This document shows, in pieces, positions 43,818 to 64,000 of a DNA stretch of 64,000 bases. Numbering within the stretch: the stretch's first letter is position 1; each line of letters starts with the position of its first letter. Position numbers and translations under genes: made by a program. Location: NCBI GenBank assembly GCA_035577545.1, contig DATLVI010000024.1, positions 133,478-197,477 of the forward strand, in the 5' to 3' direction. The stretch is from Verrucomicrobiia bacterium (GTDB taxonomy: Bacteria; Verrucomicrobiota; Verrucomicrobiia; Palsa-1439). Below the pieces are notes generated by a model. That model had not been told where the DNA came from, did no database searches, and saw only the letters and a program-made list of their open reading frames with translations.

Positions 43818-43835
43818 GCCGGGAGCCCACCAGGA

Positions 43836-44201: not shown

Positions 44202-44463
44202 ACAACTCCGCGACCTCCGCGTCGCGCTGCTCCGTGAACTCTACCGTCTGAACCCGCTCGGCCGCCGCGCCGTCGTGCTCCACATGCTGGTCCAACCAGA
44301 AGTCGAGTGCACCGTCGCCGAGGTCACCGCGCAACTCGCGTTCCTCCGCGGCAAACATTTCCTCTGCGAGGTCAAAGCCGACGACATCTCCCCCGGCCTC
44401 GACCCATTCTGGTTCATCACCACCGAAGGCATGGTTCACTGCGAGGCGAAGCGACTGGTATGA
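44191..44463 (+). CDS. hypothetical protein
   Basis: ORF; ATGA overlap with the next gene. Confidence 0.3.
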   Translation: MKAEQLRDLRVALLRELYRLNPLGRRAVVLHMLVQPEVECTVAEVTAQLAFLRGKHFLCEVKADDISPGLDPFWFITTEGMVHCEAKRLV

Positions 44464-45143
44464 AAAAGCGCCGCAATCAGAGAGTCAGTCGTTGGCCGCT
44501 CCGGAAAAGATTCAGCCGGATTGCGATGTTGCCCGAAGAAATGCGCCTCGAGATCAACCGCAAGATGCGCGATGGCCAGCAAATCAAGATGATTGGTGAA
44601 TGGTTGTTCGAGCAGCGGGCGGATCGCGACCTACCCCACCTACATTTGAAGGCGGGCGATGCTTATTCGTTGAGCTGGCTGCGCACCAGTCCGAAGGAAA
44701 AGAACGCGCGCCGGACTGTCGAAGCCGGCCTGGCCCGCTGGTTCTACACTTCGTACCAGGAATGGCTACGCCGTGAACAGGCGCGCGAGGAGACGGTTCA
44801 ACGGGTCGAAGACTCGGAACAGACCAACAGAGCGGCGGCGGAAAAGAGCCAACCCGATGCTGACGTGGGCGGCAACCTGATTATCCGCTCGATGCTTCTA
44901 GAGGCCATCAACCTGGTCCACAAGGACAGCAAAGATCCGACGGAGCTCTCGCAACTGGCGACTGCGTGGGCGCGCTTGAAACAGACGGCGATTGAACTGG
45001 AAAAGCTCCGGCTGCGCACGCAAGAGGCTGTGGACGCCGGTCTCAAGGCGCTCAAGTCCGAGATAACGAAAGACCCCGAGGCGATCGAACTTTTCAAGAA
45101 ACTTCACGACATCGTGAAACGGTCCGCGAACTCCGACGCATGA
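44460..45143 (+). CDS. putative phage terminase small subunit / DNA-recognition protein
   Basis: position immediately upstream of, and 4-nt overlap with, the large terminase; basic N-terminus; no motif confirmed. Confidence 0.35.
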   Translation: MKKRRNQRVSRWPLRKRFSRIAMLPEEMRLEINRKMRDGQQIKMIGEWLFEQRADRDLPHLHLKAGDAYSLSWLRTSPKEKNARRTVEAGLARWFYTSYQEWLRREQAREETVQRVEDSEQTNRAAAEKSQPDADVGGNLIIRSMLLEAINLVHKDSKDPTELSQLATAWARLKQTAIELEKLRLRTQEAVDAGLKALKSEITKDPEAIELFKKLHDIVKRSANSDA

Positions 45144-47197
45144 ATACGGGCTTCAACATACTCGGACGCTCCATCGACCTCGACCTGGCACCGAAAGTTA
45201 TGACGCCCATGGTGAGTTCCTTCCGCGAGTTCCTCGAGAAACACGGTCGCGTCAAAACTCCTGACGGCAGCTACCAGTGTTACACATTCGAGGGCCGCGA
45301 GGCGTTGGAGTTTGTGGTGGGGGTTATTGATCGCGTTCTCGGTTCAAACGATGGCCAACCCATGAGCGACGCCCGGCTTACTGCCACCGGTTCAGCGCAG
45401 TGGGGGAAAACCATTCTCGAACTCAACCTGCTCGCCTACGCCGCCGGTATCCAGTTCCGCTCCGTCGGCCTCTTCCTGCCCGATGAAGATCTCGTTGAGG
45501 GCATCGTCGATAGCAAATTCCGTCCCGATGTCCTCGACCAGCAGCCGTGGCTCAATTCCCTGATCACGCTCGGCAAAGCCGAAAACGCGTCGGGCAAAAC
45601 GGTCAATCGCAAGGGCTTGTTCACCTGCACCGGTAGCCGGAAAAAGTCGCACGGGATGATCCACGGCATGCAGAAGATCCCCACGACCTTCAGCTTCGAC
45701 ATCGTCATCGAGGACGAGAAGGACGACATCCCGCCGACCATGTCGCGCTACCTCACCGCCCGCATGACCGCCAGCGATCTGCGCTTCCGTTTGAGCATCG
45801 GCACCCAACGCTACGCCGGCGCGGGACAGAACAAGGAATTCGAAGACGGCACGATGCACCTCGGCCATTTCACCTGCGCCGTGTGTGGTCACAAACAAAA
45901 CCCCGAAGAAAACTGGCCGCAAATTTGCCGGTTGGCGATTGATCGCGAGCCGAGGTGCGATGATCCGCAATTGCAGTTGGAGGGGAATTTCAAGCGGAAC
46001 GGCCCGCGCTCACCGAGCGCGGCTACAGCGGAAGGCGTGTTTGAGTTCGAGCCGGACGGGAATTTTTATCTCGCGTGCGTGCAGTGCGGGCACGAACTGG
46101 ATCGGCATAAGCCGGAGTTTGTCGCGCAGCATCCCGAACGGGAGAAGTTGCAGCACTGGTCCGTGCGCATCTCGCAATTGCTCGTTGCTGCCATCGCCTT
46201 GAAACAAATCGTCTCTGATTGGTGCCAGAACGCCGTGCAAGACCCCGACGCGATGAAGACGTTTTATGTCGACCGCCTCGGCCTGCCGCGTTCCAGCAGC
46301 CAGCAACTCGACCAGAAAATCCTCGACCGCGCCCGCTCGCTGGAGCACTTCGACCTGTCACTGTCCCCACGCCCCAACACCACGCGTTTCGCAGGTTTAG
46401 ACACCGGCGACCGCTGCTGGCTCACTGTCCGCGAGGTCGAGTCCCCAACCATCAAACGCATCACCTGGCTGGAACAACTCAGCGCCGAACGCGTTCGCGC
46501 CCGTGTGCCGCAGGTTTTCGAGCTGCTGGGAGTCAGCGCACTCTTTGTCGACGCCGGCCCGCTGCGCGATCTGGCCCGCGATCTCTGTTTCTTGTTGAAC
46601 GGTCTCACGAGTTTCCGTCCGTCGCCGCTTCCCGATCCCGAACGTGCCGTCATCCATTTTCCCGGTGGCCTCACGTGGGACGGCGCGAACCAGCGCTGGC
46701 GCGGCCTGCGTTGCGCCGCCGTCGAGTTCACGCTCAAGGAAGGGAAGGGGGTCGTCCACAAACTCGGCATCACGCAGGACGGCCTCTTTTATCCCGTCAT
46801 CGCCTGCAACCGCGACGAGACCATCGAGCGCGTTGTCAACGAACTGCTTACCGCCGCCGAAAACGTCATCGAGGTCATCGACGGCAAACTGCGCACCGCG
46901 CCGTCGATCCGCCTCCCGCAACGCGGCGTCGCGACGCCGAAGATCATCGACGCGTTCGACGCGCATATCATTTCCGGCAGCCGCCGCGAACGCGACGAAC
47001 GCGGCCACGCCGAGCACTTCGTCGACGGTTGCGAAAACCATTTGCTACTCAGCGACGCCTACAGCGCGCTCGCGGAATCCGTGTGTGCTCACCCCATCGC
47101 GCTCCCTCCTTTCGGCGCGATGAATCCCACCACCTCCCTCACACACGGAAACCGCGGCCGCTGGGGCGCCACCACTTTGGCCAGGAGGACCTTTTGA
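45140..47197 (+). CDS. phage terminase large subunit (GpA-like)
   Basis: 685 aa; CxxC...CxxC zinc-ribbon (CAVCGH, CVQCGH) between the ATPase and nuclease halves, as recalled for GpA-family terminases; position before the portal. Confidence 0.65.
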   Translation: MNTGFNILGRSIDLDLAPKVMTPMVSSFREFLEKHGRVKTPDGSYQCYTFEGREALEFVVGVIDRVLGSNDGQPMSDARLTATGSAQWGKTILELNLLAYAAGIQFRSVGLFLPDEDLVEGIVDSKFRPDVLDQQPWLNSLITLGKAENASGKTVNRKGLFTCTGSRKKSHGMIHGMQKIPTTFSFDIVIEDEKDDIPPTMSRYLTARMTASDLRFRLSIGTQRYAGAGQNKEFEDGTMHLGHFTCAVCGHKQNPEENWPQICRLAIDREPRCDDPQLQLEGNFKRNGPRSPSAATAEGVFEFEPDGNFYLACVQCGHELDRHKPEFVAQHPEREKLQHWSVRISQLLVAAIALKQIVSDWCQNAVQDPDAMKTFYVDRLGLPRSSSQQLDQKILDRARSLEHFDLSLSPRPNTTRFAGLDTGDRCWLTVREVESPTIKRITWLEQLSAERVRARVPQVFELLGVSALFVDAGPLRDLARDLCFLLNGLTSFRPSPLPDPERAVIHFPGGLTWDGANQRWRGLRCAAVEFTLKEGKGVVHKLGITQDGLFYPVIACNRDETIERVVNELLTAAENVIEVIDGKLRTAPSIRLPQRGVATPKIIDAFDAHIISGSRRERDERGHAEHFVDGCENHLLLSDAYSALAESVCAHPIALPPFGAMNPTTSLTHGNRGRWGATTLARRTF

Positions 47198-47206
47198 ACA
47201 AAGACA

Positions 47207-47244
47207 ACGCTCAACGTTCAACACTGAACGCTCAACTTTCAACG
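47207..47244. repeat. tandem heptamer array TGARCGT x5 (inverted orientation)
   Basis: AACGCTCAACGTTCAACACTGAACGCTCAACTTTCAACG. Confidence 0.6.
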
Positions 47245-47307
47245 AATCGCGAAAAAACCAACAGCGCGACGGTCATAGACCGCCGCTACAAAAAACGGAG
47301 AAATAAA

Positions 47308-47703
47308 ATGAAGAAACACCTATGCGCGATCCTGCTCACTGCAACCGTCCTGGCGACGTACGTCTACGCGCAAGGCGGCTACCCGCTCGGCTCGGACGTC
47401 GCATCAACGATCACCACGAATAAATTGAATATCGTCGGCGCCAGTTCGACGCTGGTGGCGACCGACAACGCCGACCGTGTGTTTTGCAAGATCGTCCAGC
47501 GCGGCACCAACGCCATCGACGTCGGTTACAGCCTCACCGTGACCAATGGCCAGCAGGATTACCTCGTCGGCACGGTCGGCAGCACGTGGGACACGAAACG
47601 CCCCGCGCTCTACAAGGGAGCCATCTCCGCGATTCTCGATAGCTCGACGGCGACCCTCACCTCCGCCGTCACCGTCATCGAAGGCACGCGCCAAAGTTTC
47701 TAA
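47308..47703 (+). CDS. small secreted protein (signal peptide), possible moron
   Basis: MKKHLCAILLTATVLATYVYA signal peptide; inserted between the terminase and portal genes. Confidence 0.4.
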   Translation: MKKHLCAILLTATVLATYVYAQGGYPLGSDVASTITTNKLNIVGASSTLVATDNADRVFCKIVQRGTNAIDVGYSLTVTNGQQDYLVGTVGSTWDTKRPALYKGAISAILDSSTATLTSAVTVIEGTRQSF

Positions 47704-47730
47704 CTGGTTGGAGCGCTTACGAGAAACCAA

Positions 47731-49257
47731 ATGGCCAATCGCCTCACAAAAACATGGCAGGCGCTGAAGGGCGCGGGTGCGGAAATGTTCCAATTCGGCG
47801 AGAGCAATCTCGTCGACCCGCCTTCGCCTTTGGCTTCGGCGGGCAAGTCCACCACCGGAGATAGTACGCCCGTTCCTCCGGCGCCCGGCACCATCGTCAA
47901 AGCGCAGGTGGCAGAGCGCTGGATGAATCAGGTCACCCGCGGCCTCACGCCCGAAGCGGTGGACGACTATCTCACCACGGCGATCAGCGGCGACACGCTC
48001 AATCAGTTCGCGCTCTTCGAGGAGATGGAAGAGAAATGGCCCGAGCTGCGTCTAGCGCTCTACAAACACAAGCTCAAGGCCGCCCGCCGCAATCCGCGCA
48101 TCGTCCCGCCCGACCATCCGCAGAATCCCGCGCTGGCAAAAGAGAAAGCCGATTTCGCGAACTACGTCTTCGCCGCGATGCGCAACTGGCATCGCACGGC
48201 CTTCAATCTCCTCGACGCGGTCGGCAAAGGCGTCAGCGGCGCGGAGATCGATTGGCAAATGGGGGAGATAGCGGGTCGCCGCGCCGCCGTCGTCATCGCC
48301 GAAATGCCATGGGTGAATTATCGCCACTGGAGTTGGTGGTGGGACAAGCCCGAGTTGCAGTTGTTCCCCGATCTGCGCAACCGTGCCCTGCACATCGACG
48401 TGCCCGACCGCAAATTCGTCATCTTCCACCATCTCTCGAAAAGCGGCCATCCTGCGCGCGCCGCGATGTTGCGTCCGCTCGCCTGGTATTTCCTCATCTA
48501 CCTCTACACGATGAAGGACTGGAGCACGCTCGCGGAGACCTTCGGCGTCGATATCGCCCACGCGTTTTGCAACAAGGACGCCACGCAGGAACAGCGTAAT
48601 GCGATCCTCCTGCATCTCTCCCGCCTCGCCGCCCGCGCCGGCGTGTTCGATGAGGGGACGGTCGTCAATCTCCAGCGCGCCGCCAGCAGTAGTTCGTTCC
48701 CGCAGGAAGCGCTCGTGAAATACTGCTCTGAGAAAGCGCTTGAATGCCTTCTCGGCGCGACACTCGGCACGCAAGCCGGCACCCACGGCGCGCGTTCGTT
48801 GGGATTAGTCCAACAAGATGAAACAGAAGAGTTGGTGGATTGGACGTCTCTCCTCTTCGCGGGAACGATGACCGCCACCGCGTTGCGTTGGTTGATGGAC
48901 TTCAACTTCGCCGACCCCACCGACAATCCCGTGATGGAATTACCCGGTGCGAGCCGCCGCGACATCGCCGCCCTCGCCAATGTCGTCAACACCCTGGTCA
49001 ACCTCGGCCTGCGCGTCCCCGAATCCTGGGCCCACGCCCAGTTCGACATTCCACAGCCCGGCGAAACCACCGAGCGCCTGCTGACCCCGAGTCAAAATAA
49101 CGGTCCGGACGCGCCGGAAAATCCGTTCAATGGTTCTGCGCACACCAGCCTCGACGTCAAACACTCGGGTCTACGAGCGAAAGTGGGGTTCGCAGGTAAT
49201 GCCCAAGCCACAACCACAGCACCACCATCCACGTCAACAGGATGGTCTGAACGATGA
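47731..49257 (+). CDS. phage portal protein
   Basis: 508 aa; position after the large terminase; acidic/aromatic-rich core; no motif confirmed. Confidence 0.55.
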   Translation: MANRLTKTWQALKGAGAEMFQFGESNLVDPPSPLASAGKSTTGDSTPVPPAPGTIVKAQVAERWMNQVTRGLTPEAVDDYLTTAISGDTLNQFALFEEMEEKWPELRLALYKHKLKAARRNPRIVPPDHPQNPALAKEKADFANYVFAAMRNWHRTAFNLLDAVGKGVSGAEIDWQMGEIAGRRAAVVIAEMPWVNYRHWSWWWDKPELQLFPDLRNRALHIDVPDRKFVIFHHLSKSGHPARAAMLRPLAWYFLIYLYTMKDWSTLAETFGVDIAHAFCNKDATQEQRNAILLHLSRLAARAGVFDEGTVVNLQRAASSSSFPQEALVKYCSEKALECLLGATLGTQAGTHGARSLGLVQQDETEELVDWTSLLFAGTMTATALRWLMDFNFADPTDNPVMELPGASRRDIAALANVVNTLVNLGLRVPESWAHAQFDIPQPGETTERLLTPSQNNGPDAPENPFNGSAHTSLDVKHSGLRAKVGFAGNAQATTTAPPSTSTGWSER

Positions 49258-49615
49258 GAAGCAACGGGGTAATGGAGATGAGAACGAGGGCCCAAAGTCC
49301 GGTCCAAGTCATGGAAGGATCATGCCTGTGGTGGACAAATAGACGCCATTGCATTGCGCCATTGAACAGCATCGTACCGAGGACGACCATTAACCCAACG
49401 CCGCTCGCACGGCGAACAATCGTCCGCCAGCTGGCGATTTTCGCATTGTATTGCGTCGCATCCGTAGTGGTCCACGAACCCGAATTGATTGCGCGTTGTC
49501 TGGCATTGAGGACACCCCAGTACCTATGGGCATATACCTTATTGAGCCACATCGATAAGAGCACAGTCGCAATTGCGACGAGCGTGCTAATGGTCGCAGA
49601 CAGCTCCCGCGTCAT
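49157..49615 (-). CDS. hypothetical 3-4 TM membrane protein on the opposite strand, overlapping the portal 3' end
   Basis: strong TM periodicity (LWALVLISITPLLLIVQTILLTWMVVLWLWL); may start at an internal Met. Confidence 0.25.
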   Translation of the reverse strand: MTRELSATISTLVAIATVLLSMWLNKVYAHRYWGVLNARQRAINSGSWTTTDATQYNAKIASWRTIVRRASGVGLMVVLGTMLFNGAMQWRLFVHHRHDPSMTWTGLWALVLISITPLLLIVQTILLTWMVVLWLWLGHYLRTPLSLVDPSV

Positions 49616-49707
49616 GACGCCTGATTATCGCTCTGAATTCCGCGTCCCTCAAGTCCAAACCAGCCTGGCCACTACAGCCGTCCCAACCATGTTCTTAGGA
49701 GACCAAC

Positions 49708-50835
49708 ATGTCTGAATCGACAACGCAACTAATCCCCAACGTTATCGCCCTGACCGGCCTTTCCTCAGCCATCAAACCAGAGGCGCAAGCCGACCTTTGG
49801 ATCGTTTACCTGCCGAAAGGCGACCGCGCGGTTGACCAGAGCGCCGAGGATGGTACGCCGACGAAATTGCGCGTCAATCCGTCTGCGCTTTCGGCGAAGC
49901 GCATGGAAGCCGCGCGTCGGCTTGCCGCCGCGAAGCCAAACGCGAACCAGCCCTATACCGATTATAACCATGACGACAAGGAAGCCAGCGGTCGGCCGTT
50001 GAAGTTCGCGTGGCATGACGACCTCGGCGTGATCGGTCTCACGCGGCGCACGCTCCAGGCCATCGAACGCACCACGGGCGATCCGCCGGAGTTCCAGGCC
50101 TTTTCGCCGCACGTGCCTCTCGACCCCGAAACGGGCGAGGCTGTCGGTATCTATATGAACTGCGGCGGTTTCGTGAACCGCCCGCTCTTCGGCGATGCGA
50201 CTTCGCTTTCCGCCGCCGCGCATCTTCCGCAGGAATTGGTCGCCGCTGACCCGAACGAAGTCGAACTCATTAGCACCGACGTTGTAGCAGCGTCCGTCCC
50301 GGACGCTTCCACTCCCGCAACCGGGGAACGGGCGGGACGCCCGTTCTACGAACTCATTGCCAAACTCTGCGCGCACTTTCAACTCGACGCGTCCACCGTC
50401 ACCGAGCCCGAGTTGATTGCTGCCTTCGAGGAATCTGTTTCGTCCCAACCCGCTGAGCTAACCGCAAAGGCCGCGCTTCACAAACCGTCCGACGAAGAAA
50501 TCGGAATGGAGCTTGTCGGCTTTGCGGTTGGCTGCGGGATTCTCGCGCCAGCCGAGAGTGCCGAATGGGAACGCCGCCTCGCCAAAGATCGCGCGGGTTG
50601 GACGAAAGAATTGTTAGCGAAAGCGCCGAGCGTGTTGCTCGGCCGGGTCATTCAGGATCAATCCGCCGGTGAGGCTGCCGGCGGGACGAAACCGAAAGCG
50701 AAGTGGGAACAGCGCGTTGAGGAGCTGTGCGCGAAGGACCCACTCATCGCCCCGATCGCCGCCAAAGATCCTGTGCGCGCCAAATCGATTGCGCTCGAAC
50801 GAATCGCCAGGGAGGAGCCCGCGCTCCTCAAGTAG
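49708..50835 (+). CDS. putative prohead protease/scaffolding protein
   Basis: 375 aa, Ala/Glu-rich C-terminal half; position between the portal and the decoration/capsid genes. Confidence 0.4.
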   Translation: MSESTTQLIPNVIALTGLSSAIKPEAQADLWIVYLPKGDRAVDQSAEDGTPTKLRVNPSALSAKRMEAARRLAAAKPNANQPYTDYNHDDKEASGRPLKFAWHDDLGVIGLTRRTLQAIERTTGDPPEFQAFSPHVPLDPETGEAVGIYMNCGGFVNRPLFGDATSLSAAAHLPQELVAADPNEVELISTDVVAASVPDASTPATGERAGRPFYELIAKLCAHFQLDASTVTEPELIAAFEESVSSQPAELTAKAALHKPSDEEIGMELVGFAVGCGILAPAESAEWERRLAKDRAGWTKELLAKAPSVLLGRVIQDQSAGEAAGGTKPKAKWEQRVEELCAKDPLIAPIAAKDPVRAKSIALERIAREEPALLK

Positions 50836-50870
50836 GCAAAACCAAAAACCAAAAAAGAGGAGACACACAA

Positions 50871-51236
50871 ATGTGGAGCAGAACCGTTGAGACCGCCGTA
50901 AAGCTTGGCTTTGCGGTTAACCGAGGCAGCGCGGACGGCAAGGTCGTTCCCGCCGCCGATGGCACGAAGCCGACGTTCCCTGTTTTCAGTGAACGCCCCG
51001 ACGTGGGCACGATCATCGCCGCGGGCAGTACGGTCGCCATTGTCACCGATGACGGCGATCGCGAAATCTACGTCATCCTGGGCAACACGGTCACCGAATT
51101 CCAATTCGGCATGTCCGATTCGAATGGCGCATGGATCCCCGCGACGACTGGCAATTACACCGGCGTGCAATTCCTCCAAAGCGGCGTCGCCGGCGACGTC
51201 GTGAAGGCCCGCGCCGCGCAATTCAAACTCCCGTAA
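50871..51236 (+). CDS. putative head decoration protein (lambda gpD-like / DUF2190-like)
   Basis: 121 aa; strong SD AAGAGGAG; directly precedes the major capsid gene as gpD does; the track ORF starts at 50727. Confidence 0.4.
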   Translation: MWSRTVETAVKLGFAVNRGSADGKVVPAADGTKPTFPVFSERPDVGTIIAAGSTVAIVTDDGDREIYVILGNTVTEFQFGMSDSNGAWIPATTGNYTGVQFLQSGVAGDVVKARAAQFKLP

Positions 51237-51258
51237 CGCAACCCAAAGGAAAACGCAT

Positions 51259-52278
51259 ATGGCATCCGAACCGCAACTCCTGACACTCAATGCGCAGCTC
51301 ACGACGTTCGTCGCGGGCGTGCAACCACCCGATTTGCTCGGGCGCATCATCGCGCCGACGTCCCCGGCGCAGTTGATCTCCGATGTGAAATTCAACTGGT
51401 GGAAATTTGACCCCGCCGAGTATCTGCGCAAGCAGGACACGAAGGTCAACCGCCGCGGCACGATTCCCGTGACGGATTTCAGTTTCACCACCGACAGCGA
51501 TGTCCTCGCCGATCATGGCCAGCAGATCGTCAACCCGAATGACATCAGCCTGCTTAGCGAGGGCCAGCCGCCGCAAATCCTGCAAGCGCCGGTGAATGTC
51601 CGCATGGCAAAACTCAAGGCGTTGACCGAGACGTTTTGGTTCTCGCATGAGTTCGAGGCGCGTGATCTCGTCTTCACCGCCGCCAATTACGCAGCGGCCA
51701 ACACGCGCGTCGCCGCCACCACTGACATGCTCGACAATGCGGACAACGAGCCGATCAAAATTATTCAGACCCTGATCGACACGCCATTGATCCCGCCGAA
51801 CGCCCTCGTCATGGGCCTTGCCGTTTGGCGTCCGCTGCAACGTCATCCACAAATGGTCAGCGCGATCAAGGCCGTCCTCGGCAGCCGCGCCGCCGTCAGC
51901 GGCCAGGTCAACCAGGATGAAGTCGCGGCGTTCTTTGGGTTGAAACAGGTGCTCGTGGGCAAGCAGCGCACGAATAACGCGAACCCCGGCCAGACGGCCA
52001 GCTACAGCCGCATCTGGGGCAAGCACCTCGCCGCGATCCGCATCGAGGACGCGCCGCAGTCCACCGTCTCGCCGTACCCCGGCACCGCGCTCACGGCGTA
52101 CGGAAACATCATGAACGCCGGCCCGGTCTTCGTCGCCTCCCGCACGATCCAGCCCGGCGAGGAAAACGGCGGCCTCTACGGCGCCGTCGCCGACATCATC
52201 GGCCACACGCGCAAGGTCCTCATGGTCAATCAGGATTCTTGTTACCTGTTGCAGAACTGCGTGACCAACGACGTGTAA
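51259..52278 (+). CDS. phage major capsid protein (lambda gpE-like size and position)
   Basis: 339 aa; followed by a strong stem-loop; order D-like then E-like. Confidence 0.6.
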   Translation: MASEPQLLTLNAQLTTFVAGVQPPDLLGRIIAPTSPAQLISDVKFNWWKFDPAEYLRKQDTKVNRRGTIPVTDFSFTTDSDVLADHGQQIVNPNDISLLSEGQPPQILQAPVNVRMAKLKALTETFWFSHEFEARDLVFTAANYAAANTRVAATTDMLDNADNEPIKIIQTLIDTPLIPPNALVMGLAVWRPLQRHPQMVSAIKAVLGSRAAVSGQVNQDEVAAFFGLKQVLVGKQRTNNANPGQTASYSRIWGKHLAAIRIEDAPQSTVSPYPGTALTAYGNIMNAGPVFVASRTIQPGEENGGLYGAVADIIGHTRKVLMVNQDSCYLLQNCVTNDV

Positions 52279-52294
52279 ACCACCAAACCCGATT

Positions 52295-52318
52295 CCCTCT
52301 CCCCTTCGGGGGAGAGGG
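52295..52318 (+). terminator. stem-loop CCCTCTCCCC-TTCG-GGGGAGAGGG after the capsid gene
   Basis: perfect 10-bp stem; near-identical copy at 54847-54870. Confidence 0.5.
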
Positions 52319-52340
52319 TCAGGGTGAGAGGGAATAAAAC

Positions 52341-52817
52341 ATGACCACCATCAGCGCCTTCTTGATCGCCGCCGACGTGACGGACAATTTCAGTCCCGCG
52401 CAACTCATCGAATTGCTCGACGACCCCGTGAATCCCACCGGCGCGTTGAACACCACCCTCCGCGACAAAATCATCGCCCGCGTCAATGGCGAAGCCAGCA
52501 GCCTCACCTCGGGCAAACTCATCTTTCCACTGCAAGTCGACGACACCGACGCCGACAACATCAAGGCCACCCTCGCCGGCTTCGCGCTGGACATGTTCGA
52601 GTACTACGCGATGAAGGACAAACCGCACATCCTGCAAGCCTTCACCGGTGTGCAAGATGGCTACAACCGCGCCATCCGGTGGCTCGAAGCTGTCCGCGAT
52701 GGCAAAGCCACCATCGGCACCAGCAAAACCATCCCCGGCGCCGAAGCCCGCAACGCCGCCGTCGAGACCAGCCCCCACAAGGGCACGTTCGAACGCAGAC
52801 GAATGAGAGGTTGGTAG
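52341..52817 (+). CDS. putative head-tail connector/completion protein
   Basis: position after the capsid gene; 158 aa. Confidence 0.35.
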   Translation: MTTISAFLIAADVTDNFSPAQLIELLDDPVNPTGALNTTLRDKIIARVNGEASSLTSGKLIFPLQVDDTDADNIKATLAGFALDMFEYYAMKDKPHILQAFTGVQDGYNRAIRWLEAVRDGKATIGTSKTIPGAEARNAAVETSPHKGTFERRRMRGW

Positions 52818-52938
52818 CGCATGAGGCAAAATACAAAAACACCGTTCGTCTTTTCTGTCACCCTGAGCGAAAGCGAAGGGTCTCGCAAAACAAGCCTGCA
52901 CTTTCGCAATCACTGCGGAGTTAGGAAGTAGCCCTCAA

Positions 52939-53481
52939 ATGCCCTTCACCATCGAACAACGTGGTTTCGACGAACAAGGCCAGCGCCTTCATCTCATCAC
53001 CAACGGTCTCGACAACCTCGACCCGCTCTTGACCGTAATTGCCTCCGACCTCGCGCAAATGTGGCGCGACAACATCGACGCCGGTCCCAACGATCGCTGG
53101 CAAGGCGGCCCCTCGTATCGAGCGAAGACATTCGGCGGCACCACCTTACGCGACCGCGGCTTGATGCAATCTTCCATCGTTGGCCAGCAGACCGGCCCGT
53201 CTGAAATCAGTGTCGGCAGCCCGCTCACGGTCGGTAACGGGTGGAACCTCCTTGCCATCCACGAATTCGGCGCGGACGTGGTGGCAAAAAACAAGGAATG
53301 GCTCACGTTCCGTTACCCGATCGCTTCCGCCTCCGAACCCGGCTGGGCGCGCAAAAAAGAAATCCGCATCCCAAGCCGGCCCACCGCCCCATTCGATTGG
53401 GACCGCAACGAACTAACTCCAGAAGCCGACCAACTCGTTCACTCATGCATCAATGACCATCTTGCGGAGTTATGCCAATGA
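52939..53481 (+). CDS. putative virion morphogenesis / head-tail joining protein
   Basis: position; 180 aa. Confidence 0.3.
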   Translation: MPFTIEQRGFDEQGQRLHLITNGLDNLDPLLTVIASDLAQMWRDNIDAGPNDRWQGGPSYRAKTFGGTTLRDRGLMQSSIVGQQTGPSEISVGSPLTVGNGWNLLAIHEFGADVVAKNKEWLTFRYPIASASEPGWARKKEIRIPSRPTAPFDWDRNELTPEADQLVHSCINDHLAELCQ

Positions 53482-54011
53482 GCAATTATCTCATCGACAT
53501 CGAAGATGCCGTCATCACGAAAGTCAATTCCGCCAGGCGACCTGACGACAACACACGCAGTTTCTTCAATCGCGTGGACATCTTCCGCGGCGAAAAATCC
53601 GAAGTCTTTCTCGCAGTTGCCCGCGAGACCGCGCCGTCGGCTTGGCTGCGTCTCGACCGCATTCTTAACAAATCCGAAGAATTCAAGAGTGCGCGCGGCC
53701 TCGGCCAACCCGTCCTGCAAGGCACATCGCGCAACGAAATCGCCTGCGTCTGGTCACTGTTCCTCTGCGCCCGCTCGCTGCGCGCCACCAAGGAACTTTC
53801 CCACGGCGGTCCCGGCATCATCGGCGCGTACGACATGATCAACCTCGTTGTCGGCCCGTCCGGTTCGCCGCCGTCAACCGCCGGCCAACTGCGCGGCTGG
53901 CCGCCCATCGCGACCGCCGAACCTTTCATCTTTGTCGGCCTGGAACTGCTCGGCCAGACGACAACTGAGACCGTCTACGAAGCTCAGTTCCGAACCCGAG
54001 TGCAACTGTGA
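53472..54011 (+). CDS. putative tail completion protein
   Basis: position; overlaps the upstream gene. Confidence 0.3.
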   Translation: MPMSNYLIDIEDAVITKVNSARRPDDNTRSFFNRVDIFRGEKSEVFLAVARETAPSAWLRLDRILNKSEEFKSARGLGQPVLQGTSRNEIACVWSLFLCARSLRATKELSHGGPGIIGAYDMINLVVGPSGSPPSTAGQLRGWPPIATAEPFIFVGLELLGQTTTETVYEAQFRTRVQL

Positions 54012-54050
54012 ACGAAACCATTATCAAAAACCAAAACGGAGGAATGAGAA

Positions 54051-54836
54051 ATGAGTAACTTGGCCATCCGCAATCGGCTGACCGTCGGCAATGTCTGGCA
54101 GGGCGGCGCGGTCGCGCTTTTCGACCGCGATTATGCCGGCGTCCTGCTGGACCTCGGCAACGTCACCGATTCGAGCTTTAACCAGGAATTGGAGGCGACC
54201 GACTTCCGCACCGCGCGCGCCACGGGCACGCTCGTCACCGAAGCCCGTCCCATCAAACGCCTCGAACTGCCCATCACCATCAAATGCAACGCGCCCGACC
54301 CGAAAGCACTCGACCTCGTGCTCTTCGGCAACGGCCAGGCCGCTTTCAGTCAGTCCTCGGCGACCGCCTCCACCCAAAACATCACCGTCGCCGCGCTCGA
54401 CATGTGGCACAAGATCGCCGGCTTCGAAATCGCCAACGTCGTTGTAAAGAAAGCCAGCACCACCGCTGTGCTCGGTACCGATTACGATCTCGACACCGAA
54501 CTCGGTGCTGTCAAGCCGCTCACTGGCGGCATGTTTTCCGTCACCGACACCATGGCCCTGACTTTCGACCTGACCGCGATCACGAAGGTCGAGAACCGGC
54601 CGCAGACCCACATCGGCTTCGTTTACGGCGAATTCTACCTCTACATGGTCCTCCCGCCGAACGAAGGCCGCGCCGCCGAGCAAGTCTGGCTCCGCCACAT
54701 GGCCAAATCCCGTCTGGAACCGACTGGCAACTTCGACTTCAGTCCCGACAAACCGGCCGAACAATCATTCAAAATCACGCCCATACCGAGCGGCGACGCC
54801 ACGTACCCCTTCGGTTACCTGCGCCAAATCAAATAA
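54051..54836 (+). CDS. putative major tail (tube) protein
   Basis: 261 aa; SD GGAGGAA; followed by a strong stem-loop; immediately upstream of the chaperone/frameshift/TMP block. Confidence 0.5.
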   Translation: MSNLAIRNRLTVGNVWQGGAVALFDRDYAGVLLDLGNVTDSSFNQELEATDFRTARATGTLVTEARPIKRLELPITIKCNAPDPKALDLVLFGNGQAAFSQSSATASTQNITVAALDMWHKIAGFEIANVVVKKASTTAVLGTDYDLDTELGAVKPLTGGMFSVTDTMALTFDLTAITKVENRPQTHIGFVYGEFYLYMVLPPNEGRAAEQVWLRHMAKSRLEPTGNFDFSPDKPAEQSFKITPIPSGDATYPFGYLRQIK

Positions 54837-54846
54837 CGCATCCTGT

Positions 54847-54870
54847 CCCTCTCCCCTGCGGGGGAGAGGG
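54847..54870 (+). terminator. stem-loop CCCTCTCCCC-TGCG-GGGGAGAGGG after the tail gene
   Basis: copy of the 52295 hairpin; the ~45 bp repeat includes the downstream AGGGTGAGRGG. Confidence 0.5.
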
Positions 54871-54903
54871 TTAGGGTGAGGGGAACAAAGCCAATCCATA
54901 TAT

Positions 54904-55278
54904 ATGACCGACACCATCAAACCGACAATCCGCGAGCCGCTCGAAGTCATTTATGACGACGAACGCCGCGAGACCATCATCATCAAGCGCCTCTCCAACA
55001 CCGACATGATCAAGTGGGCCGACACCGGCCTCGACAAGGCCTTTCTTGTTTTCCGCTCCGTGGAATTCAGTAGCGCGGGCGTTTCGCCCGCGAATCAATT
55101 GTGGTTCGACACCCTCTCTCAAGACAGCGCCTTCGCCGTTGTCGAGAAGGCGCTCACGCTGAACCATTCCCCAATTCAAAAAAAAATAATGGAGGCCGTC
55201 CTGGCAAACCTGCGGTCGTGGTTGTCAGCGATGCCCTCGACTTCCTCCGCGCCCGCGGTCACGACACCGACAAACTGA
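54904..55278 (+). CDS. tail assembly chaperone (gpG-like, short form)
   Basis: 124 aa ORF ending just after an A9 slippery run; the overlapping -1 frame ORF 55101..55502 continues to just before the TMP gene. Confidence 0.55.
   Translation: MTDTIKPTIREPLEVIYDDERRETIIIKRLSNTDMIKWADTGLDKAFLVFRSVEFSSAGVSPANQLWFDTLSQDSAFAVVEKALTLNHSPIQKKIMEAVLANLRSWLSAMPSTSSAPAVTTPTN
55178..55186 (+). other. A9 slippery sequence; programmed -1 ribosomal frameshift site producing a G-T-like fusion (54904..55502)
   Basis: C-AAA-AAA-AAA-T; frame 1 reads QKKIM, -1 frame reads SKKNNGG and stays open 133 aa. Confidence 0.6.
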
Positions 55279-55520
55279 CCGACTATGAAATCGAAGAAAC
55301 TTTCACAGCCGCTTTCAAAAACTGGCAGCACGGTCTGGTCGAAGCCGCCTTTTACACGGGCCTGCCATGGATAACCAAACCGCGTGACTGGAAAAAATAC
55401 TGCGACGACCTCCACCGGGCAATCGAAGGAAATTCACAACGCGCTGTCGCCGAGAATCTGCTCGCCACCTTTCTCTCGCAGGGCGTTCCCATCGCGAATT
55501 GACGGCAAAGGATAATTAAT

Positions 55521-56591: not shown

Positions 56592-57844
56592 TCCCGAACC
56601 TCACCATATTGCCATTTAGGGCGAACTGGTATTCACGAATCACGTTGAAGTCCACTTTCGCCACAAATATCAAACGTGAATCCATTCCCGGCAGCATTAC
56701 GCGCGACAGCGCGCGCGACTACGGTCAGCGCTCCATCAAGTTCAGCATCCTTCCGTACGAGGATCAGCGTCGGAATTGGGACGCATTCCGCGAAGTAAAT
56801 CCGCCGGGCACAATCCTCGGCATCCCGCTCTGGTGTGAGGAAGGTATCTACCTGACCGCCGACTCCCCCATCGGCGCAACGACTCTATCGGTCTCCGCAG
56901 TGAACTTCATCGACTGGCGGAACGAAGCCGTGTTGTGGAAGTTCGACGACTCGGCTTGCGAAGGCATCCAAATCGCGAGTATTAGCGCTACCACAATCAC
57001 GCTTTCATCCGCCCTTCAATCCGCTTTCAAAGCCGGCGACCAGGTTTTGCCCATGATGCGCGGATACCAGATCGATGAGTACGCCGAGGAGCTTCAATCC
57101 TGCGAGACTTCGGTAATCGAACTTACTTTCGAGGAAGATCTCGCGCACGCGGCTGCCCCATCGATGCCGGGCACTCTCAATGCCGCGACCTACCTCGGCC
57201 TGCCCGTGCTGCCGCTCATCGCCGAATGGGGCGAAGCTCCCAAGGTGAATATTGGTCAGGGCACACACATCGTCTCGTCAGGGTTCAATCGGCAGGCGCT
57301 CGCCACCTTGCGGCAGTTCATTCGCCAGCGCATCTCGCATCGCATCGGTTGTAACGGACGCCAGGATCGCGCAACCCTCTGGCAGTTCTTCCACGACCGT
57401 TGTGGTCGCTGGCAACGATTCTGGCTGCCGGGTTTCAAGAACGAACTGCTGCTTTCCGCGGACGTGGGAGCGAGCGATACCACGTTGCAACTCAAAAACT
57501 TCTCCTCCTTCACTTCTCGTTTCAATTATGGCGGCCAGCTACGACGCGCGATCTTTATTACCAACGGGGATCGATGGTGGATCCGACAGGTGATCAATCT
57601 TTCCGGAGGCGCCAACCGCGTCAGCATTGATTCGGCCGTGGGCTCTTCGCTCTCCGCTTCTTCCACCCTCGTTGGTCTGCTCCCCCTTGTGCAATTCGCA
57701 ACCGATGACATCGAGATCGAATGCCAGTCTCCGCTGGTGTCCACCGCAACCCTCACATTCACCGAGCTCGAGCGTGAATACACGGATGTCATCACGGCCG
57801 GCATCGCAAGCGGCACAGTCGAGGGGATGGAGTTGACGTCATGA
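56588..57844 (+). CDS. distal tail protein (RcGTA g12 / DUF2460-like position)
   Basis: ATGA overlap with the TMP gene; 418 aa; the track ORF 56207.. has a spurious N-terminal extension. Confidence 0.45.
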   Translation: MIPNLTILPFRANWYSRITLKSTFATNIKRESIPGSITRDSARDYGQRSIKFSILPYEDQRRNWDAFREVNPPGTILGIPLWCEEGIYLTADSPIGATTLSVSAVNFIDWRNEAVLWKFDDSACEGIQIASISATTITLSSALQSAFKAGDQVLPMMRGYQIDEYAEELQSCETSVIELTFEEDLAHAAAPSMPGTLNAATYLGLPVLPLIAEWGEAPKVNIGQGTHIVSSGFNRQALATLRQFIRQRISHRIGCNGRQDRATLWQFFHDRCGRWQRFWLPGFKNELLLSADVGASDTTLQLKNFSSFTSRFNYGGQLRRAIFITNGDRWWIRQVINLSGGANRVSIDSAVGSSLSASSTLVGLLPLVQFATDDIEIECQSPLVSTATLTFTELEREYTDVITAGIASGTVEGMELTS

Positions 57845-59328
57845 GGGCCGTCCCCTCAGCTTGGAGCGCCCTGGAGACCGCGCGCGAGCGACGGGTCGCG
57901 TTGCTGTTCCACATCTTCGCGCGGCGCGATGGCCGCGTCTCCCTGCCGAATGGCTGGGGATCGTGGACCTACTCGGTCGGATTTCAAAGCAGCGTCAACT
58001 TCACCGACCTCGCGAACTACGCGAGTGATGGCATCCAGTCGCGCACCTACATTCCCGCGGCGATTGAATTCGACGCGAGCCAGGTCTTCCGCAAGGAAAG
58101 CACCGACCTTGATCCGCACAATCTCACGCTCACGGTCGATCCGCAGTTGGATCCGTTTGCCAATTACGTTGGTCGCCGGTGGCCACTCACCTTCGGCATC
58201 GTGATCTACAAGGTCCATCGCAACGGCAACGCCGTCGTCGCAGTGGACGATGGCCACGGCAACCAGGTGCCGGTCGTGGACGTGGCGTTCATCGGCTATC
58301 TCGACAGCGATGACACCTTCGACGCCAACAGCGCGGGCCTGGAGCAGACGATCGACGGCGGCAAGCTCAAGCTCGAAACAAAGTGGGACCACATCACGAA
58401 GAAGTTCATCCGCCCGGTGCCGCGTCCCGTTTTCAGCATCGATTGTCCCAAGGCGCTCTTCTCGACCGACACCGCCGCCGTTGCCTGCAATGCCGACAAG
58501 CCGAACGTCCGCATCGACGGTTTCGTGTTGCAGAACAACGGCGTGGTCATCAGCGCTACCGAATGGGCCGTACAACCCGATGGCTGGTTTGCCCAGGGGC
58601 TCGTCGAATTTACCGGGACAGATCCGGTCAGCGGACTGGACTTCAGTTTCTCGCTCGGCGTCATCGCCAGCGCCAGGCGCACCTCCCTCGGCGTGGATTA
58701 CGGCGACCTGACGTTGGAGATGTTCCCGCCGTTGCCGGTGACGGGGCTCATCGTCACGGCGTATGGTGGTTGCGACCGCGCCCGTTCAACTTGCGTTACC
58801 AAGCACATTCCCGCCGGTACCGTTCCGCCGGCGCCCGGCACGCCGACACCCGGCCACATCGACGTGGCGCTGCAGTTGTTCAATACACCGCCAACCAATG
58901 CCGGCACCGCGCGCGTGATCATCACACCAACGCAGTTGACCGTTCTCTACGGGCACACGAATTCCGCCCAGATCGGCAACTTCGCCGTCAACGGCGCGGA
59001 CTGGACCACCTATTCCTGGATCGCAAAAGGCTCCGGCTCGATCATCACCGATCCGCCATTCGACCTGGTCGGCGGCGCCGGCATCCCGGACGCCGCGGGC
59101 TACATATTCTCGCTTGCAAACAATGGCGCGGGCGCACCTTCGATCGCGCAGCAACCCACCGCCGCGAATGGTTTCACGTTGATCGTCAAAATAAGTGGCC
59201 AGGCAGCCTACGATTTCCGCGTGAGCTGGACCGCCGGCGATGGCCAGCCCGTCAACTTCGGCAACCTCGAAAACTTCGGCGGCACGGACATCCCCATCGA
59301 GCACCCGACATTGGAGACGACGCAATAA
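57841..59328 (+). CDS. tail hub/baseplate protein (RcGTA g13 / DUF2163-like position)
   Basis: 495 aa; overlaps the previous gene; followed by an NlpC/P60 gene as in g12-g13-g14 modules. Confidence 0.45.
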   Translation: MRAVPSAWSALETARERRVALLFHIFARRDGRVSLPNGWGSWTYSVGFQSSVNFTDLANYASDGIQSRTYIPAAIEFDASQVFRKESTDLDPHNLTLTVDPQLDPFANYVGRRWPLTFGIVIYKVHRNGNAVVAVDDGHGNQVPVVDVAFIGYLDSDDTFDANSAGLEQTIDGGKLKLETKWDHITKKFIRPVPRPVFSIDCPKALFSTDTAAVACNADKPNVRIDGFVLQNNGVVISATEWAVQPDGWFAQGLVEFTGTDPVSGLDFSFSLGVIASARRTSLGVDYGDLTLEMFPPLPVTGLIVTAYGGCDRARSTCVTKHIPAGTVPPAPGTPTPGHIDVALQLFNTPPTNAGTARVIITPTQLTVLYGHTNSAQIGNFAVNGADWTTYSWIAKGSGSIITDPPFDLVGGAGIPDAAGYIFSLANNGAGAPSIAQQPTAANGFTLIVKISGQAAYDFRVSWTAGDGQPVNFGNLENFGGTDIPIEHPTLETTQ

Positions 59329-59921
59329 TGCCACCGCGCCGACCATACTTCTATGGCTCGAATCGCGCGCGCTCACTGCTTGCACAGTTGGCAAAATGGC
59401 AGGGGACGCGCTGGCGGCACGCGGGTGCGAAGCCAAATGAGATGCGGTGTGGCGTCAGCGGCGATTGCCTGTTCTGGGTCCACGTCTTCAAGGCCATCGA
59501 TGCTTTACCGGCAAAGCTAACGATCCCCGACTATCGCCTGCAGGAAGCGCGCGCCGATGAAATGAAAACGCTACGTCAGTGCATCATGGCCACCGGCCGC
59601 GCACAGCTTGTCTGGGAGCGCGACAGTATCGCGAACTATCGAGGAAAGGCCGACGATGAACTCCACCGGCTCGGCTTGCCGTGGCTGATTGTCGGCGATG
59701 TACTGATTTACAAGAATGGGACCAGCGGTGCGCATTGCGGCCTGGTGGCGAACGTTGCGCCGATCCAGTTCGTGCACTTGACTGGCAATGGCCTCCTCGA
59801 GGAGCCACTGCACCAGAAGCACTATCTACAGTCGTTGACATACATTTACCGGCTGCTGGAGCCCGAGTTGAGCGTTGAACGTTCCGCGTTGAATGTTGGA
59901 AGTTTAGGAGTTTCACAATGA
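59328..59921 (+). CDS. tail-associated NlpC/P60 cell-wall peptidase (RcGTA g14 / lambda gpK C-terminal domain-like)
   Basis: catalytic Cys in CGVSGDCLFWVHVF and His in SGAHCGLVAN; TAATG overlap with the upstream gene; the track ORF 58383.. N-terminal extension is spurious. Confidence 0.65.
   Translation: MPPRRPYFYGSNRARSLLAQLAKWQGTRWRHAGAKPNEMRCGVSGDCLFWVHVFKAIDALPAKLTIPDYRLQEARADEMKTLRQCIMATGRAQLVWERDSIANYRGKADDELHRLGLPWLIVGDVLIYKNGTSGAHCGLVANVAPIQFVHLTGNGLLEEPLHQKHYLQSLTYIYRLLEPELSVERSALNVGSLGVSQ
59866..59905. repeat. tandem heptamer array TGARCGT x5
   Basis: AGTTGAGCGTTGAACGTTCCGCGTTGAATGTTGGAAGT, inside the 3' end of the NlpC/P60 gene, just upstream of the 972-aa gene. Confidence 0.6.
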
Positions 59922-62836: not shown

Positions 62837-62906
62837 ATAGATCCTTCCTGCACCCGTGGGAGCGGTTTGCAACCGCAAATTCTCTCTTTTCTGGTGGTGA
62901 ACACTC

Positions 62907-63368
62907 ATGAGCGTACTCGCAAACGGAACCGAGGACCTTCCACCGGGTCTCACGCCGGCCGCGGCCTACGCCCTGGTCAACACCGCGATCCAGAAGATCG
63001 CGCAGATGAACCTGTTGGACAAAGATGTGCCGTTCTTCGGGCTGGTGCGCGACAACCAGGTGCGCGGTACTTCGCAGATCGCCATCGAACGACTGATCAC
63101 CGCTGTCGAGATCCGCGCCGAAAGCGCCGCCCCTGTAGGCAGCGCGCTGGTCGCGCAGCTCGTCGTCAACGGTAACGTCCAATCGCAGCAATACACGCTC
63201 AACGCCGGCAGTGCCTACGTGCTTCGATCCGTCACCGGCGATGGCAACGGCGGACCCGGCTCCGGCCTCGTAGTTCCCGCCAACCAGACGCTTGCCGTCA
63301 AGATCATCACCGCCAACCAGGCCGCCGATGTGGCCGTCACCATGAAATGCCAATTGAGGATTCTATGA
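62907..63368 (+). CDS. hypothetical tail-associated protein
   Basis: ORF; ATGA overlap with the next gene. Confidence 0.3.
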   Translation: MSVLANGTEDLPPGLTPAAAYALVNTAIQKIAQMNLLDKDVPFFGLVRDNQVRGTSQIAIERLITAVEIRAESAAPVGSALVAQLVVNGNVQSQQYTLNAGSAYVLRSVTGDGNGGPGSGLVVPANQTLAVKIITANQAADVAVTMKCQLRIL

Positions 63369-64000
63369 AGCCGAGCAAACAACCCACTCAAATGATGCGA
63401 GACGCCGCGATGTTGTTCACGCGGCAACCGACACGCACTTTAACTACCGCACTTACCGTCCTTTCATTCTTCGTCATTCTGCATTCATCCTTCGCCGGCA
63501 ACGTCTTTCCGTTCCGCATCATCAGCGGCAGTACAACCGCAGAGGTGGACGAGACACAATTTGGTGCGAGCGACATCACGCTCACAGTCACGAACTTGCC
63601 GGGCGGCGGCCGTCGAGCGAACATCGGCATTATCGGCGGCGGCGGTAGTGGCAGCGGCATCACCAACGTGCTCGATACCGCCGGCGGAACGTACGGTCTT
63701 GTCGGCCACACCAATCAGCCCACTTTGCTGATCAAGGGGCTGACCAACCAGACACCCGCGCTGATTACCATCACGGATTTCGGAACGATGCTCGGTTTCT
63801 CAGTCGCCACACAAAGCGGCTTCGGCTCGACCAACGCGTGGACCACCAACGGCCTGCCGTGGACTGTGTCCGACACGTTCGGTTTCTCCAACGCCTCATC
63901 GGTCGTGAACCTGGCATTCACCAATCTCGGCGGTGTGCCGACGATCTACCTCGTGCCCGACAGCACCATCGCGCGGACAGGGCAATCGCAAACCTGGAGC
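63365..64000 (+). CDS. secreted/anchored beta-rich protein, 3'-partial (runs off the window); putative tail fiber or receptor-binding component
   Basis: manual translation from ATG 63365 gives MKPSKQPTQMMRDAAMLFTRQPTRTLTTALTVLSFFVILHSSFA... with no stop to 64000; not in the track because no stop codon. Confidence 0.4.
   Translation, partial: MKPSKQPTQMMRDAAMLFTRQPTRTLTTALTVLSFFVILHSSFAGNVFPFRIISGSTTAEVDETQFGASDITLTVTNLPGGGRRANIGIIGGGGSGSGITNVLDTAGGTYGLVGHTNQPTLLIKGLTNQTPALITITDFGTMLGFSVATQSGFGSTNAWTTNGLPWTVSDTFGFSNASSVVNLAFTNLGGVPTIYLVPDSTIARTGQSQTWS

Follow-up and report, generated by a model that had tools for sequence, protein, structure and literature searches.

We analyzed a 64,000-nucleotide stretch of contig DATLVI010000024.1 from a Verrucomicrobiia bacterium (assembly GCA_035577545.1), hereafter called the window, and in particular the phage-like gene cluster at its right-hand end. 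This cluster is very probably a domesticated, chromosomally fixed Mu-like phage particle locus. Its distribution and substitution patterns point to vertical inheritance and to maintenance by selection in a soil and peat lineage of Verrucomicrobiia, and make it a strong candidate for a gene transfer agent (GTA) of independent origin. That the particles perform actual DNA transfer is a tentative proposal, close to balanced; the combined statement, a domesticated particle locus with GTA-like DNA transfer, is the reading we moderately favor. Two properties by which GTAs are recognized were found here: the locus is a structural and packaging cluster without replication, integration or excision genes of its own, and it is maintained by its hosts, as judged from lineage conservation, vertical descent and purifying selection. 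A tailocin would consist of tail genes only; here a complete, conserved head and terminase module is present.

Extent of the locus and its chromosomal setting

The particle cluster spans 22.6 kb, from a triple repeat (42894-42920) and the gene g01 (start 43011) to the end of a fiber gene at window-equivalent position 65440, ~1.4 kb past the window edge. Positions beyond 64000 were read on the 161.7-kb source contig (ENA ERZ27256708 k141_1038883), which continues for 6.8 kb beyond the window; the window and this extension together make 70.8 kb. The initial annotation had described a co-directional, tightly packed run of genes at 44460-64000. Those genes are real, all on the plus strand and joined by 4-nt overlaps as stated, but the cluster starts earlier, with the repeat and three genes at 43011-44463, and ends later. 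Throughout 43011-65440 the conserved genes lie on the plus strand in tight succession, with 4-nt overlaps at six junctions and overlaps of 1-11 nt at three more. They encode packaging, head, neck, tail and tail-tip proteins and three small conserved proteins without assignment. The left edge was set by comparison with relatives, in which g01 is always the first conserved gene, with its true start at 43011. An N-terminal extension of g01, in an open reading frame (ORF) beginning at 42882, was rejected as the translation of the non-coding repeat element. Scans for sigma-70 promoters and terminators at the cluster borders were uninformative.

Both flanks are cellular, which bears out the earlier description of a structural-only cluster amid host genes and extends it to the downstream side seen on the source contig. 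The 42 kb upstream carry genes for TrpD, histidine kinases, hydrolases, an ABC permease, amino-acid permeases, a porin and EngA, along with a methyltransferase, an AHSA1-like protein, DedA/rhodanese, an ethylene-receptor-type kinase, and MORN, EamA and FHA proteins. Downstream of the fiber gene are a class-I methyltransferase, a coiled-coil protein and a class II ribonucleotide reductase (NrdJ), after which the contig ends. GC content varied from 0.55 to 0.62 along the window with no step at the cluster, and no tRNA genes that could serve as integration targets were found in the window.

Searches of the flanks with Pfam found no integrase, transposase, MuB, Gam, Mor/C, repressor or replication gene. 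We also used tblastn with the transposases and MuB-like ATPases of two metagenomic Mu-like phages (L006, L007) and of Pseudomonas phage Bise; further queries were the early genes of L020, a distantly related Verrucomicrobiota locus, namely Gam and two ORFs without assignment. There were 0 matches in the 70.8 kb and 0 in the tier-1 loci, where tier 1 denotes loci whose large terminase (TerL) is 63-89% identical and tier 2 those at 47-60%. Having no transposase, the locus is by its gene content not a transposable phage.

Conservation and selection

When each GTDB species was represented by one genome, the cluster turned up in 9 Verrucomicrobiia metagenome-assembled genomes (MAGs) from peat, palsa and soil and in two distant relatives. 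JGI metagenomes yielded 20 more loci, and exact-protein look-ups gave further contexts. The gene order was the same across these loci, from g01 to the fibers, and early genes were present in none. Identity to the window was 87-99% for the capsid, mostly 82-97% for the major tail protein, 63-86% for TerL and 46-86% for the tail-tip proteins. The element thus lies outside the Alphaproteobacteria, as had been proposed, and the comparative check named in the initial annotation, a search of relatives for this cluster at the syntenic position, succeeded; the cluster was found there with purifying selection and co-divergence of the flanks.

The loci fell into two groups by their surroundings. In the window's group (the window, L011, L012, L013, L022 and L045-47), an upstream kinase, MORN and/or FHA genes were common; the window and L022 also had a 343-aa gene and NrdJ downstream in common. 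Variable host-type genes were inserted between these landmark genes and the cluster. The second group (L004/L008, L009, L010/L018, L025/L048, L029/31, L030, L034, L016, L017 and L026) had a Zn-ribbon/HTH gene and a small ORF in common upstream, and a 173-aa gene, an aldo-keto reductase, a fatty-acid desaturase, HvfC, MbnB and DoxX downstream.

The ratio of nonsynonymous to synonymous substitution rates (dN/dS) was mostly below 0.4 over the comparisons. Between the window and L013, every cluster gene had a dN/dS of 0.00-0.27 at a dS of 0.24-0.98, and the flanking FHA gene had a dS of 0.26 and a dN/dS of 0.21. When L010 was compared with four relatives, dS was 0.30-1.29 in the flanks, 0.24-0.68 in the head and tail-shaft genes and 0.8-1.6 in the tail-tip genes. 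Because cluster dS resembles that of the flanking host genes, the cluster has diverged in step with its surroundings. This co-divergence fits vertical descent, and would fit neither a recent sweep nor a decaying remnant.

Ancestry of the head and tail modules

The initial annotation had read the locus as a chimera of a lambda-type head and a tail tip of the type found in the Rhodobacter GTA (RcGTA). The lambda assignment did not hold: Phage_portal_2, Peptidase_S49, gpD/DUF2190 and Phage_cap_E gave no Pfam match at E<=0.01, and for TerL, portal, protease and capsid the only Pfam matches were Portal_Mu and a sub-threshold GpA_ATPase. By its families the head is instead Mu-type, with Portal_Mu (3e-56), a Phage_Mu_Gp36 adaptor, a weakly matching gp27-like small terminase (TerS) and a gpI-like protease, one ortholog of which (in L009) contains a Mu-like_Pro_N domain. 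Given the Mu-type head, descent from a Mu-like transposable siphophage, of which this is the remainder, is a better reading than a chimera of lambda and GTA parts. The tail-tip assignment survived in part. The hub, the NlpC/P60 peptidase and the "megatron" protein appear distantly RcGTA/lambda-like, but no family of RcGTA g12-g15, whether DUF2460, TIGR02218, TIGR02219 or megatron, was matched above its cut-off (TIGR02218, 14.9 vs 80.5 bits; GTA_megatron, 43.7 vs 800 bits).

Tier-1 TerL loci were on contigs of up to 808 kb named Verrucomicrobiae/Verrucomicrobiia, and tier-2 loci were mostly on contigs of ~30-45 kb. Relatives of TerL at 53-59% identity were present in the ~36-kb Mu-like transposable phages L006 and L007, in which a gene for a 670-673-aa transposase and one for an AAA_22 MuB-like ATPase lie divergently upstream of the late genes. 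Both phages have Portal_Mu, and L007 also has Mu Gam. Among isolates, the best matches to the capsid were Mu-like Pseudomonas phages, at no more than 30% identity; in one of them, Bise, the order protease-small gene-capsid is as here, and genes for a transposase, Ner, a repressor, Gam and Mor are present. TerL was at most 24% identical to proteins of isolated phages, and only the N-terminal 17-19% of the 972-aa central fiber protein matched any. IMG/VR held just two fragments of this cluster.

In L020, g01 is 39% and TerL 35% identical to the window's proteins. There, at 1-11062, a block of divergently oriented genes, Mu Gam and early-like ones among them, stands ahead of the g01 homolog and TerL and abuts a host MFS gene; no transposase was found in L020. 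This locus may represent an intermediate stage of domestication, or may be a contig artefact.

Gene content of the cluster

The features of the cluster are listed in Table 1.

Table 1. Features of the particle cluster in window coordinates, with the observations on which each assignment is based.
Feature	Coordinates	Strand	Observations
Triple direct repeat, 10-bp phasing	42894..42920	+	CTTCCAAAG CTTCCAAAC CTTCCAAAG, then conserved CTCACG..TTTTTT
g01, 268-aa membrane protein	43011..43817	+	N-terminal helical/transmembrane region and C-terminal beta-rich domain (hydropathy); leftmost conserved gene
g02, 121-aa single-pass membrane coiled-coil protein	43836..44201	+	Invariant RDRRLMNKKLDILLQRTA motif; dN/dS 0.12
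g03, 90-aa conserved small protein	44191..44463	+	dN/dS 0.08
Small terminase, Mu gp27/DUF3486-like, 227 aa	44460..45143	+	Phage_Mu_Gp27 1e-3 (weak), phrog_426 9.5e-5
Large terminase TerL, 685 aa	45140..47197	+	phrog_675 4.6e-35, weak GpA_ATPase match
g06, 131-aa protein with N-terminal signal peptide	47308..47703	+	71% identity to 137-aa gene of L005
Portal, Mu gp29 type	47731..49257	+	Portal_Mu 3e-56, phrog_113 3.7e-68
Head protease/scaffold, Mu gpI-like, short form	49708..50835	+	Weak phrog_3894 match
121-aa head protein, scaffold or decoration	50871..51236	+	Weak phrog_673 match
Major capsid protein, 339 aa	51259..52278	+	phrog_1005 4e-43
Head-tail adaptor, Mu gp36 family	52341..52817	+	Phage_Mu_Gp36 2.7e-12, phrog_195
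Neck/tail-completion protein	52939..53481	+	phrog_26 5e-8
179-aa conserved neck/tail protein	53472..54011	+	69-93% identity across tier-1 loci; no family match
Major tail (tube) protein	54051..54836	+	phrog_807 1.3e-12; UCP028589 match (gene as called on source contig)
Tail assembly chaperones G (54904-55278) and G-T	54904..55502	+	-1 frameshift at A AAA AAA (55179)
Tape measure, 356 aa	55521..56591	+	Several PHROG tape-measure families, weak Tape_meas_lam_C match
Distal tail/tail assembly protein, 418 aa	56588..57844	+	phrog_1082 5.3e-45
Baseplate hub, distantly RcGTA g13/BR0599 type	57841..59328	+	phrog_778 2e-11, Phage_BR0599 9e-3, TIGR02218 0.016 (below cut-off)
NlpC/P60 cell-wall peptidase of tail tip, 197 aa	59328..59921	+	Weak NCBIfam MepS match
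Central fiber/host-specificity protein, 972 aa	59918..62836	+	Phage-tail_3 1.5e-6, phrog_1101 2.8e-57, GTA_megatron 8e-12
153-aa tail-tip accessory protein	62907..63368	+	In 11 loci, 40-84% identity; no family match
Fiber-like gene, 691 aa, last of cluster	63365..64000, on to 65440 equivalent	+	Called on L001, L002; no family match

The triple repeat occurred once in the window, compared with 0 occurrences expected in shuffled sequences. It lies ~90-115 bp upstream of g01 and was nearly invariant in every tier-1 locus that covers the region, and the sequence farther upstream was unrelated among those loci. The repeat was not found in the distant, Gam-bearing relative L020, and there was no sigma-70 consensus promoter near it. 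We infer that it is a candidate operator or activator site, part of an activator-dependent promoter of the cluster.

Homologs of g01 (n = 68) were all within this Verrucomicrobiia group and begin at M44 of the long ORF; the gene had a dN/dS of 0.24. An AlphaFold2 (AF2) model built from 39 homologs had a mean confidence score (pLDDT) of 67, and Foldseek against the PDB returned nothing below E=0.01. Profile searches gave no family match for g02, which is holin- or spanin-like by shape only. The g03 profile matched the SorC-family N-terminal DNA-binding domain weakly (E=0.021), and a single-sequence AF2 model was uninformative (pLDDT 42); the protein is possibly a winged-helix DNA-binding protein.

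The strip directly upstream of the cluster was variable in content. It carried restriction-modification systems in L005 (5285-7002; XhoI and an N6/N4 methyltransferase) and in L016 (5604-7731; a SacI-like enzyme and a D12 methyltransferase), and in L004 (3657-5473) a gene resembling those of insertion sequences, with a weak rve match, and a Zn_ribbon_IS1595/HTH gene. The strip directly upstream of g01 looks like an insertion hot spot.

For the packaging and head genes, the portal, protease/scaffold, 121-aa protein and 339-aa capsid called in the initial annotation were recovered by profile matches, as were the major tail and tape measure genes. With its start at 44460, TerS agreed in length with its orthologs. 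The zinc ribbon proposed for TerL was borne out by two CxxC pairs (a 4-Cys zinc ribbon), which were invariant across 17 orthologs together with the Walker A motif (GSAQWGKT), the acidic DEKDD motif and the nuclease-domain motif. The window's TerL is the shortest at 685 aa; orthologs reach 884 aa, and a 1092-aa ORF was present in the distant L021 (771-4049). The variable extra length falls between the CxxC pairs, where either an intein or an additional domain could account for it. The small gene g06, between terminase and portal, was also called in L045-L047; a secreted protein is unexpected within a head module. A 73-aa ORF at 47546-47767 was rejected as a gene because it is not conserved.

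The gap between portal and protease was variable. In the window it is 450 bp long (49258-49707) and without a homolog, and a 153-aa ORF at 49254-49715, for which no locus had a homolog, was rejected as a gene. Relatives carry 1-4 unrelated small minus-strand cargo genes in this gap (L005 14442-16006; L012 7617-9169; L043 6828-8019; L048 15116-16307). The window's protease/scaffold lacks a ~62-aa Cys/His-rich N-terminal domain present in L004 and L005; the short 365-aa form was also found in L045, which indicates a sublineage trait. The 121-aa head protein (g10) was 74-100% identical across tier-1 loci and occupies the position of the small gene between protease and capsid in Bise. It was rejected as gpD-like, having no gpD/DUF2190 match and no PDB profile match. 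The major capsid protein was the most conserved product of the cluster (87-99% identity across tier-1 loci, dN/dS 0.02-0.11) and had a weak PDB match to 3bjq (E=0.0018), which with the weak GpA_ATPase match of TerL was the sole trace of a lambda-type head.

In the tail module, the -1 frameshift predicted for G/G-T was supported by an A7-A9 run at the same place in 13/13 orthologous loci. Tape measure orthologs were 338-356 aa long. Tail length usually follows ~0.15 nm per tape measure residue, so a tape measure of only 356 aa predicts a short tail of ~50 nm. The NlpC/P60 call was likewise upheld; a profile of 18 orthologs matched Spr/MepS at 9e-6, with C47, H136 and H150 invariant. The 972-aa protein appears to be distantly megatron- or gpJ-like, with a GTA_megatron match far below the cut-off.

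The 691-aa fiber was 65-66% identical to genes of L022 and L024, and was highly variable in other loci. A single fiber gene is present in the window, against two in L022 and L024, where the additional one is ~800 aa long, and two plus a small gene in the loci of the second group. The class-I methyltransferase gene downstream (65434-66069 equivalent; L001 12528-13163, minus strand) occupies the place of ~2 kb and the second fiber/tailspike gene (~800 aa) in L022 and L024; the second fiber has been lost or replaced in the window's genome. Between L034 (2092-7200) and L010 (13335-18365) the flanking host genes were 100% identical (dS <=0.02), whereas g23 and the fiber genes differed at 1-15% of amino acids, with a dS of 0.11-0.18. 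This contrast suggests recombinational turnover of the adsorption module. Turnover of fibers between strains with identical flanks is expected if the particles must bind cells.

Neighboring genes

An HTH_3 gene (XRE-type, minus strand) and a weakly matching HTH_17 gene (Xis/MerR-type, plus strand) lie amid cellular genes at 34508-35726. In no relative was the pair next to the cluster; the two genes may be stray regulators, or the remains of a different element. At 37838-39001 (minus strand) is a histidine kinase whose N-terminal domain is of the ethylene-receptor type (ETR1_N, 7.5e-40); in L045 and L046, too, a kinase gene adjoins the MORN gene upstream of the cluster. Two tandem paralogous amino-acid permease genes (670 and 682 aa) occupy 14204-18354 (minus strand).

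Proposed mechanism and alternative explanations

All parts for a DNA-filled, siphovirus-like particle are encoded and intact, namely the terminase, the G/GT frameshift, a short tape measure, the peptidase and fibers. In the mechanism we propose, binding of a regulator to the three CTTCCAAA repeats, which lie in helical phase ahead of g01, would turn on a single 22.6-kb operon. Since there is no replication or transposition machinery, the host chromosome would be the sole substrate of the headful terminase. The particles would carry host DNA, packaged either at random or from a pac-like site within the locus or close to it, and would deliver it to neighboring cells as a GTA does. Release might proceed through the membrane proteins g01 and g02, or through lysis genes elsewhere as in RcGTA; we put this step forward with less assurance than the others. 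A Mu-type headful terminase on a locus that neither replicates nor excises might package the chromosome processively from a fixed site, making the locus a lateral-transduction machine. A bolder version of the proposal, which we hold to be possible but slightly more doubtful than transfer itself, is that this is the first GTA from the Planctomycetes-Verrucomicrobia-Chlamydiae (PVC) group: a Mu-like siphophage minus its transposition and immunity module, rewired to the three phased repeats, with packaging from a fixed site and a contribution to virome DNA.

Several points weigh against a domesticated GTA-like locus. No endolysin or holin family was detected, and neither a lysis gene nor a regulator of the cluster was identified. 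The two sublineages occupy two chromosomal sites, which requires one relocation or rearrangement. A Mu-type capsid may hold more than 22.6 kb, in which case the classical GTA property of packaging less DNA than the locus itself would fail. All genomes are MAGs, and genes elsewhere, such as a distant early module, are thus possible. Finally, the particles, their packaged DNA and the transfer are predictions from the gene content.

Of the alternatives, the one that best withstands the data, although we consider it unlikely, is that the locus makes a PBSX-like killer particle (phibacin), kept for killing competitors on adsorption, with packaged host DNA incidental and not productively transferred. 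The evidence for domestication would be the same in either case, the tail tip contains a cell-wall peptidase, and the fiber genes turn over rapidly between strains with identical flanks, as in bacteriocin-like tail systems. However, TerS, TerL and the portal are under strong purifying selection with catalytic residues invariant, which is hard to explain if the DNA is irrelevant. PBSX also keeps its terminase. The tail here is non-contractile, and F-type (non-contractile) tailocins do without heads.

It is improbable that the locus is a structural helper whose capsids and tails serve, in trans, a separate mobile element of the same genome, such as an early-gene-only Mu-like element or a satellite. 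Mu-like phages with related TerL do circulate in the same kinds of samples, and L020 keeps its Gam and early-like genes beside the late operon with no transposase. However, a partner element was seen in no locus, and fixation at syntenic sites with host-like dS points to a benefit to the host. We know of no system that works in this way.

An ordinary functional prophage, with integrase, replication and lysis genes beyond the examined region or with host recombinases used in their place, is largely refuted. MAG contigs do give a limited view, and two copies of a 12-mer, AACGCAGTCACA, are placed like an att core, one at 42972-42983, just inside the left border, and one at 65492-65503 equivalent (L001 12586-12597), 52 nt past the stop of the last gene. 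However, the 12-mer was conserved at the borders of no relative and was rejected as an att site, the repetition being probably due to chance; moreover, cellular genes lie on both flanks here and in ~20 other loci, and the flanks co-diverge with the cluster. A functionless, decaying prophage remnant is the least tenable reading of all: most non-structural genes are gone and the g19 homolog of the long-read MAG L008 is split into two ORFs, but ~22 genes are intact in at least 9 species, with dN/dS mostly 0.02-0.3 at dS up to ~1, and conservation extends to the frameshift site, the catalytic residues and the candidate operator, so that selection and conservation refute it.

Significance and comparison with known systems

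A domesticated particle locus with GTA-like transfer would, if the particles do move host DNA, be a so far unrecognized means by which genes move among bacteria that are abundant in peat and soil, and a source of cellular DNA in soil viromes. A study of peat viromes reported abundant non-viral DNA in purified particles and raised GTAs as a cause (PMC6172770). That study is context and not evidence for this locus; particles of the present kind could account for part of the "non-viral" microbial DNA in purified peat viromes. The locus also has a defined gene set and a candidate operator, its orthologs form a graded series over several species, and free-living phage relatives exist for comparison. 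With these, questions on the passage from phage to host organelle become directly testable, such as gene loss and retention and the rewiring of control. Our literature searches found no described GTA or such element from Verrucomicrobia. To our knowledge, recognized cases of independent GTA origin are few, with none from Verrucomicrobiota or from a Mu-like ancestor.

The closest parallel is RcGTA. Both are chromosomal head-plus-tail clusters limited to structural and packaging genes, conserved, vertically inherited and subject to purifying selection. A short tape measure is common to the two, neither cluster contains lysis genes, and the tail tips are distantly homologous in the hub (TIGR02218/BR0599), the NlpC/P60 peptidase and the megatron-like protein. 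In contrast, the head and packaging module here is Mu-type (Portal_Mu, gp27-like TerS, gp36). The RcGTA g2-g5 head families were not matched, and NCBIfam gave no match for TerL, protease or capsid. The cluster is also larger (22.6 kb; that of RcGTA is ~15 kb), is found in Verrucomicrobiota, and has three unique upstream genes and the triple-repeat operator candidate. On these family comparisons the locus is not a member of the RcGTA family, and the homology of the tail tip is distant.

With the Mu-like phages (Mu; B3/D3112-like siphoviruses; Bise; L006 and L007) the locus shares its portal, TerS, gp36 and the protease-small gene-capsid order. It differs from them in having no DDE transposase, MuB, Gam, Mor/C, Ner or repressor, in occupying fixed syntenic sites where those phages insert at random, and in being at most 30% identical to any isolate. 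PBSX of Bacillus is similar as a conserved, chromosomally fixed, phage-derived particle locus that does not propagate itself, and PBSX particles carry host DNA. PBSX, however, has a contractile tail, its own repressor, a sigma-like regulator and lysis genes, whereas the tail here is non-contractile and none of those genes was recognizable. BaGTA (Bartonella), VSH-1 (Brachyspira), Dd1 (Desulfovibrio) and VTA (Methanococcus) differ from the present locus in ancestry and host phylum; the resemblance to them lies in the concept, the independent domestication of a tailed phage.

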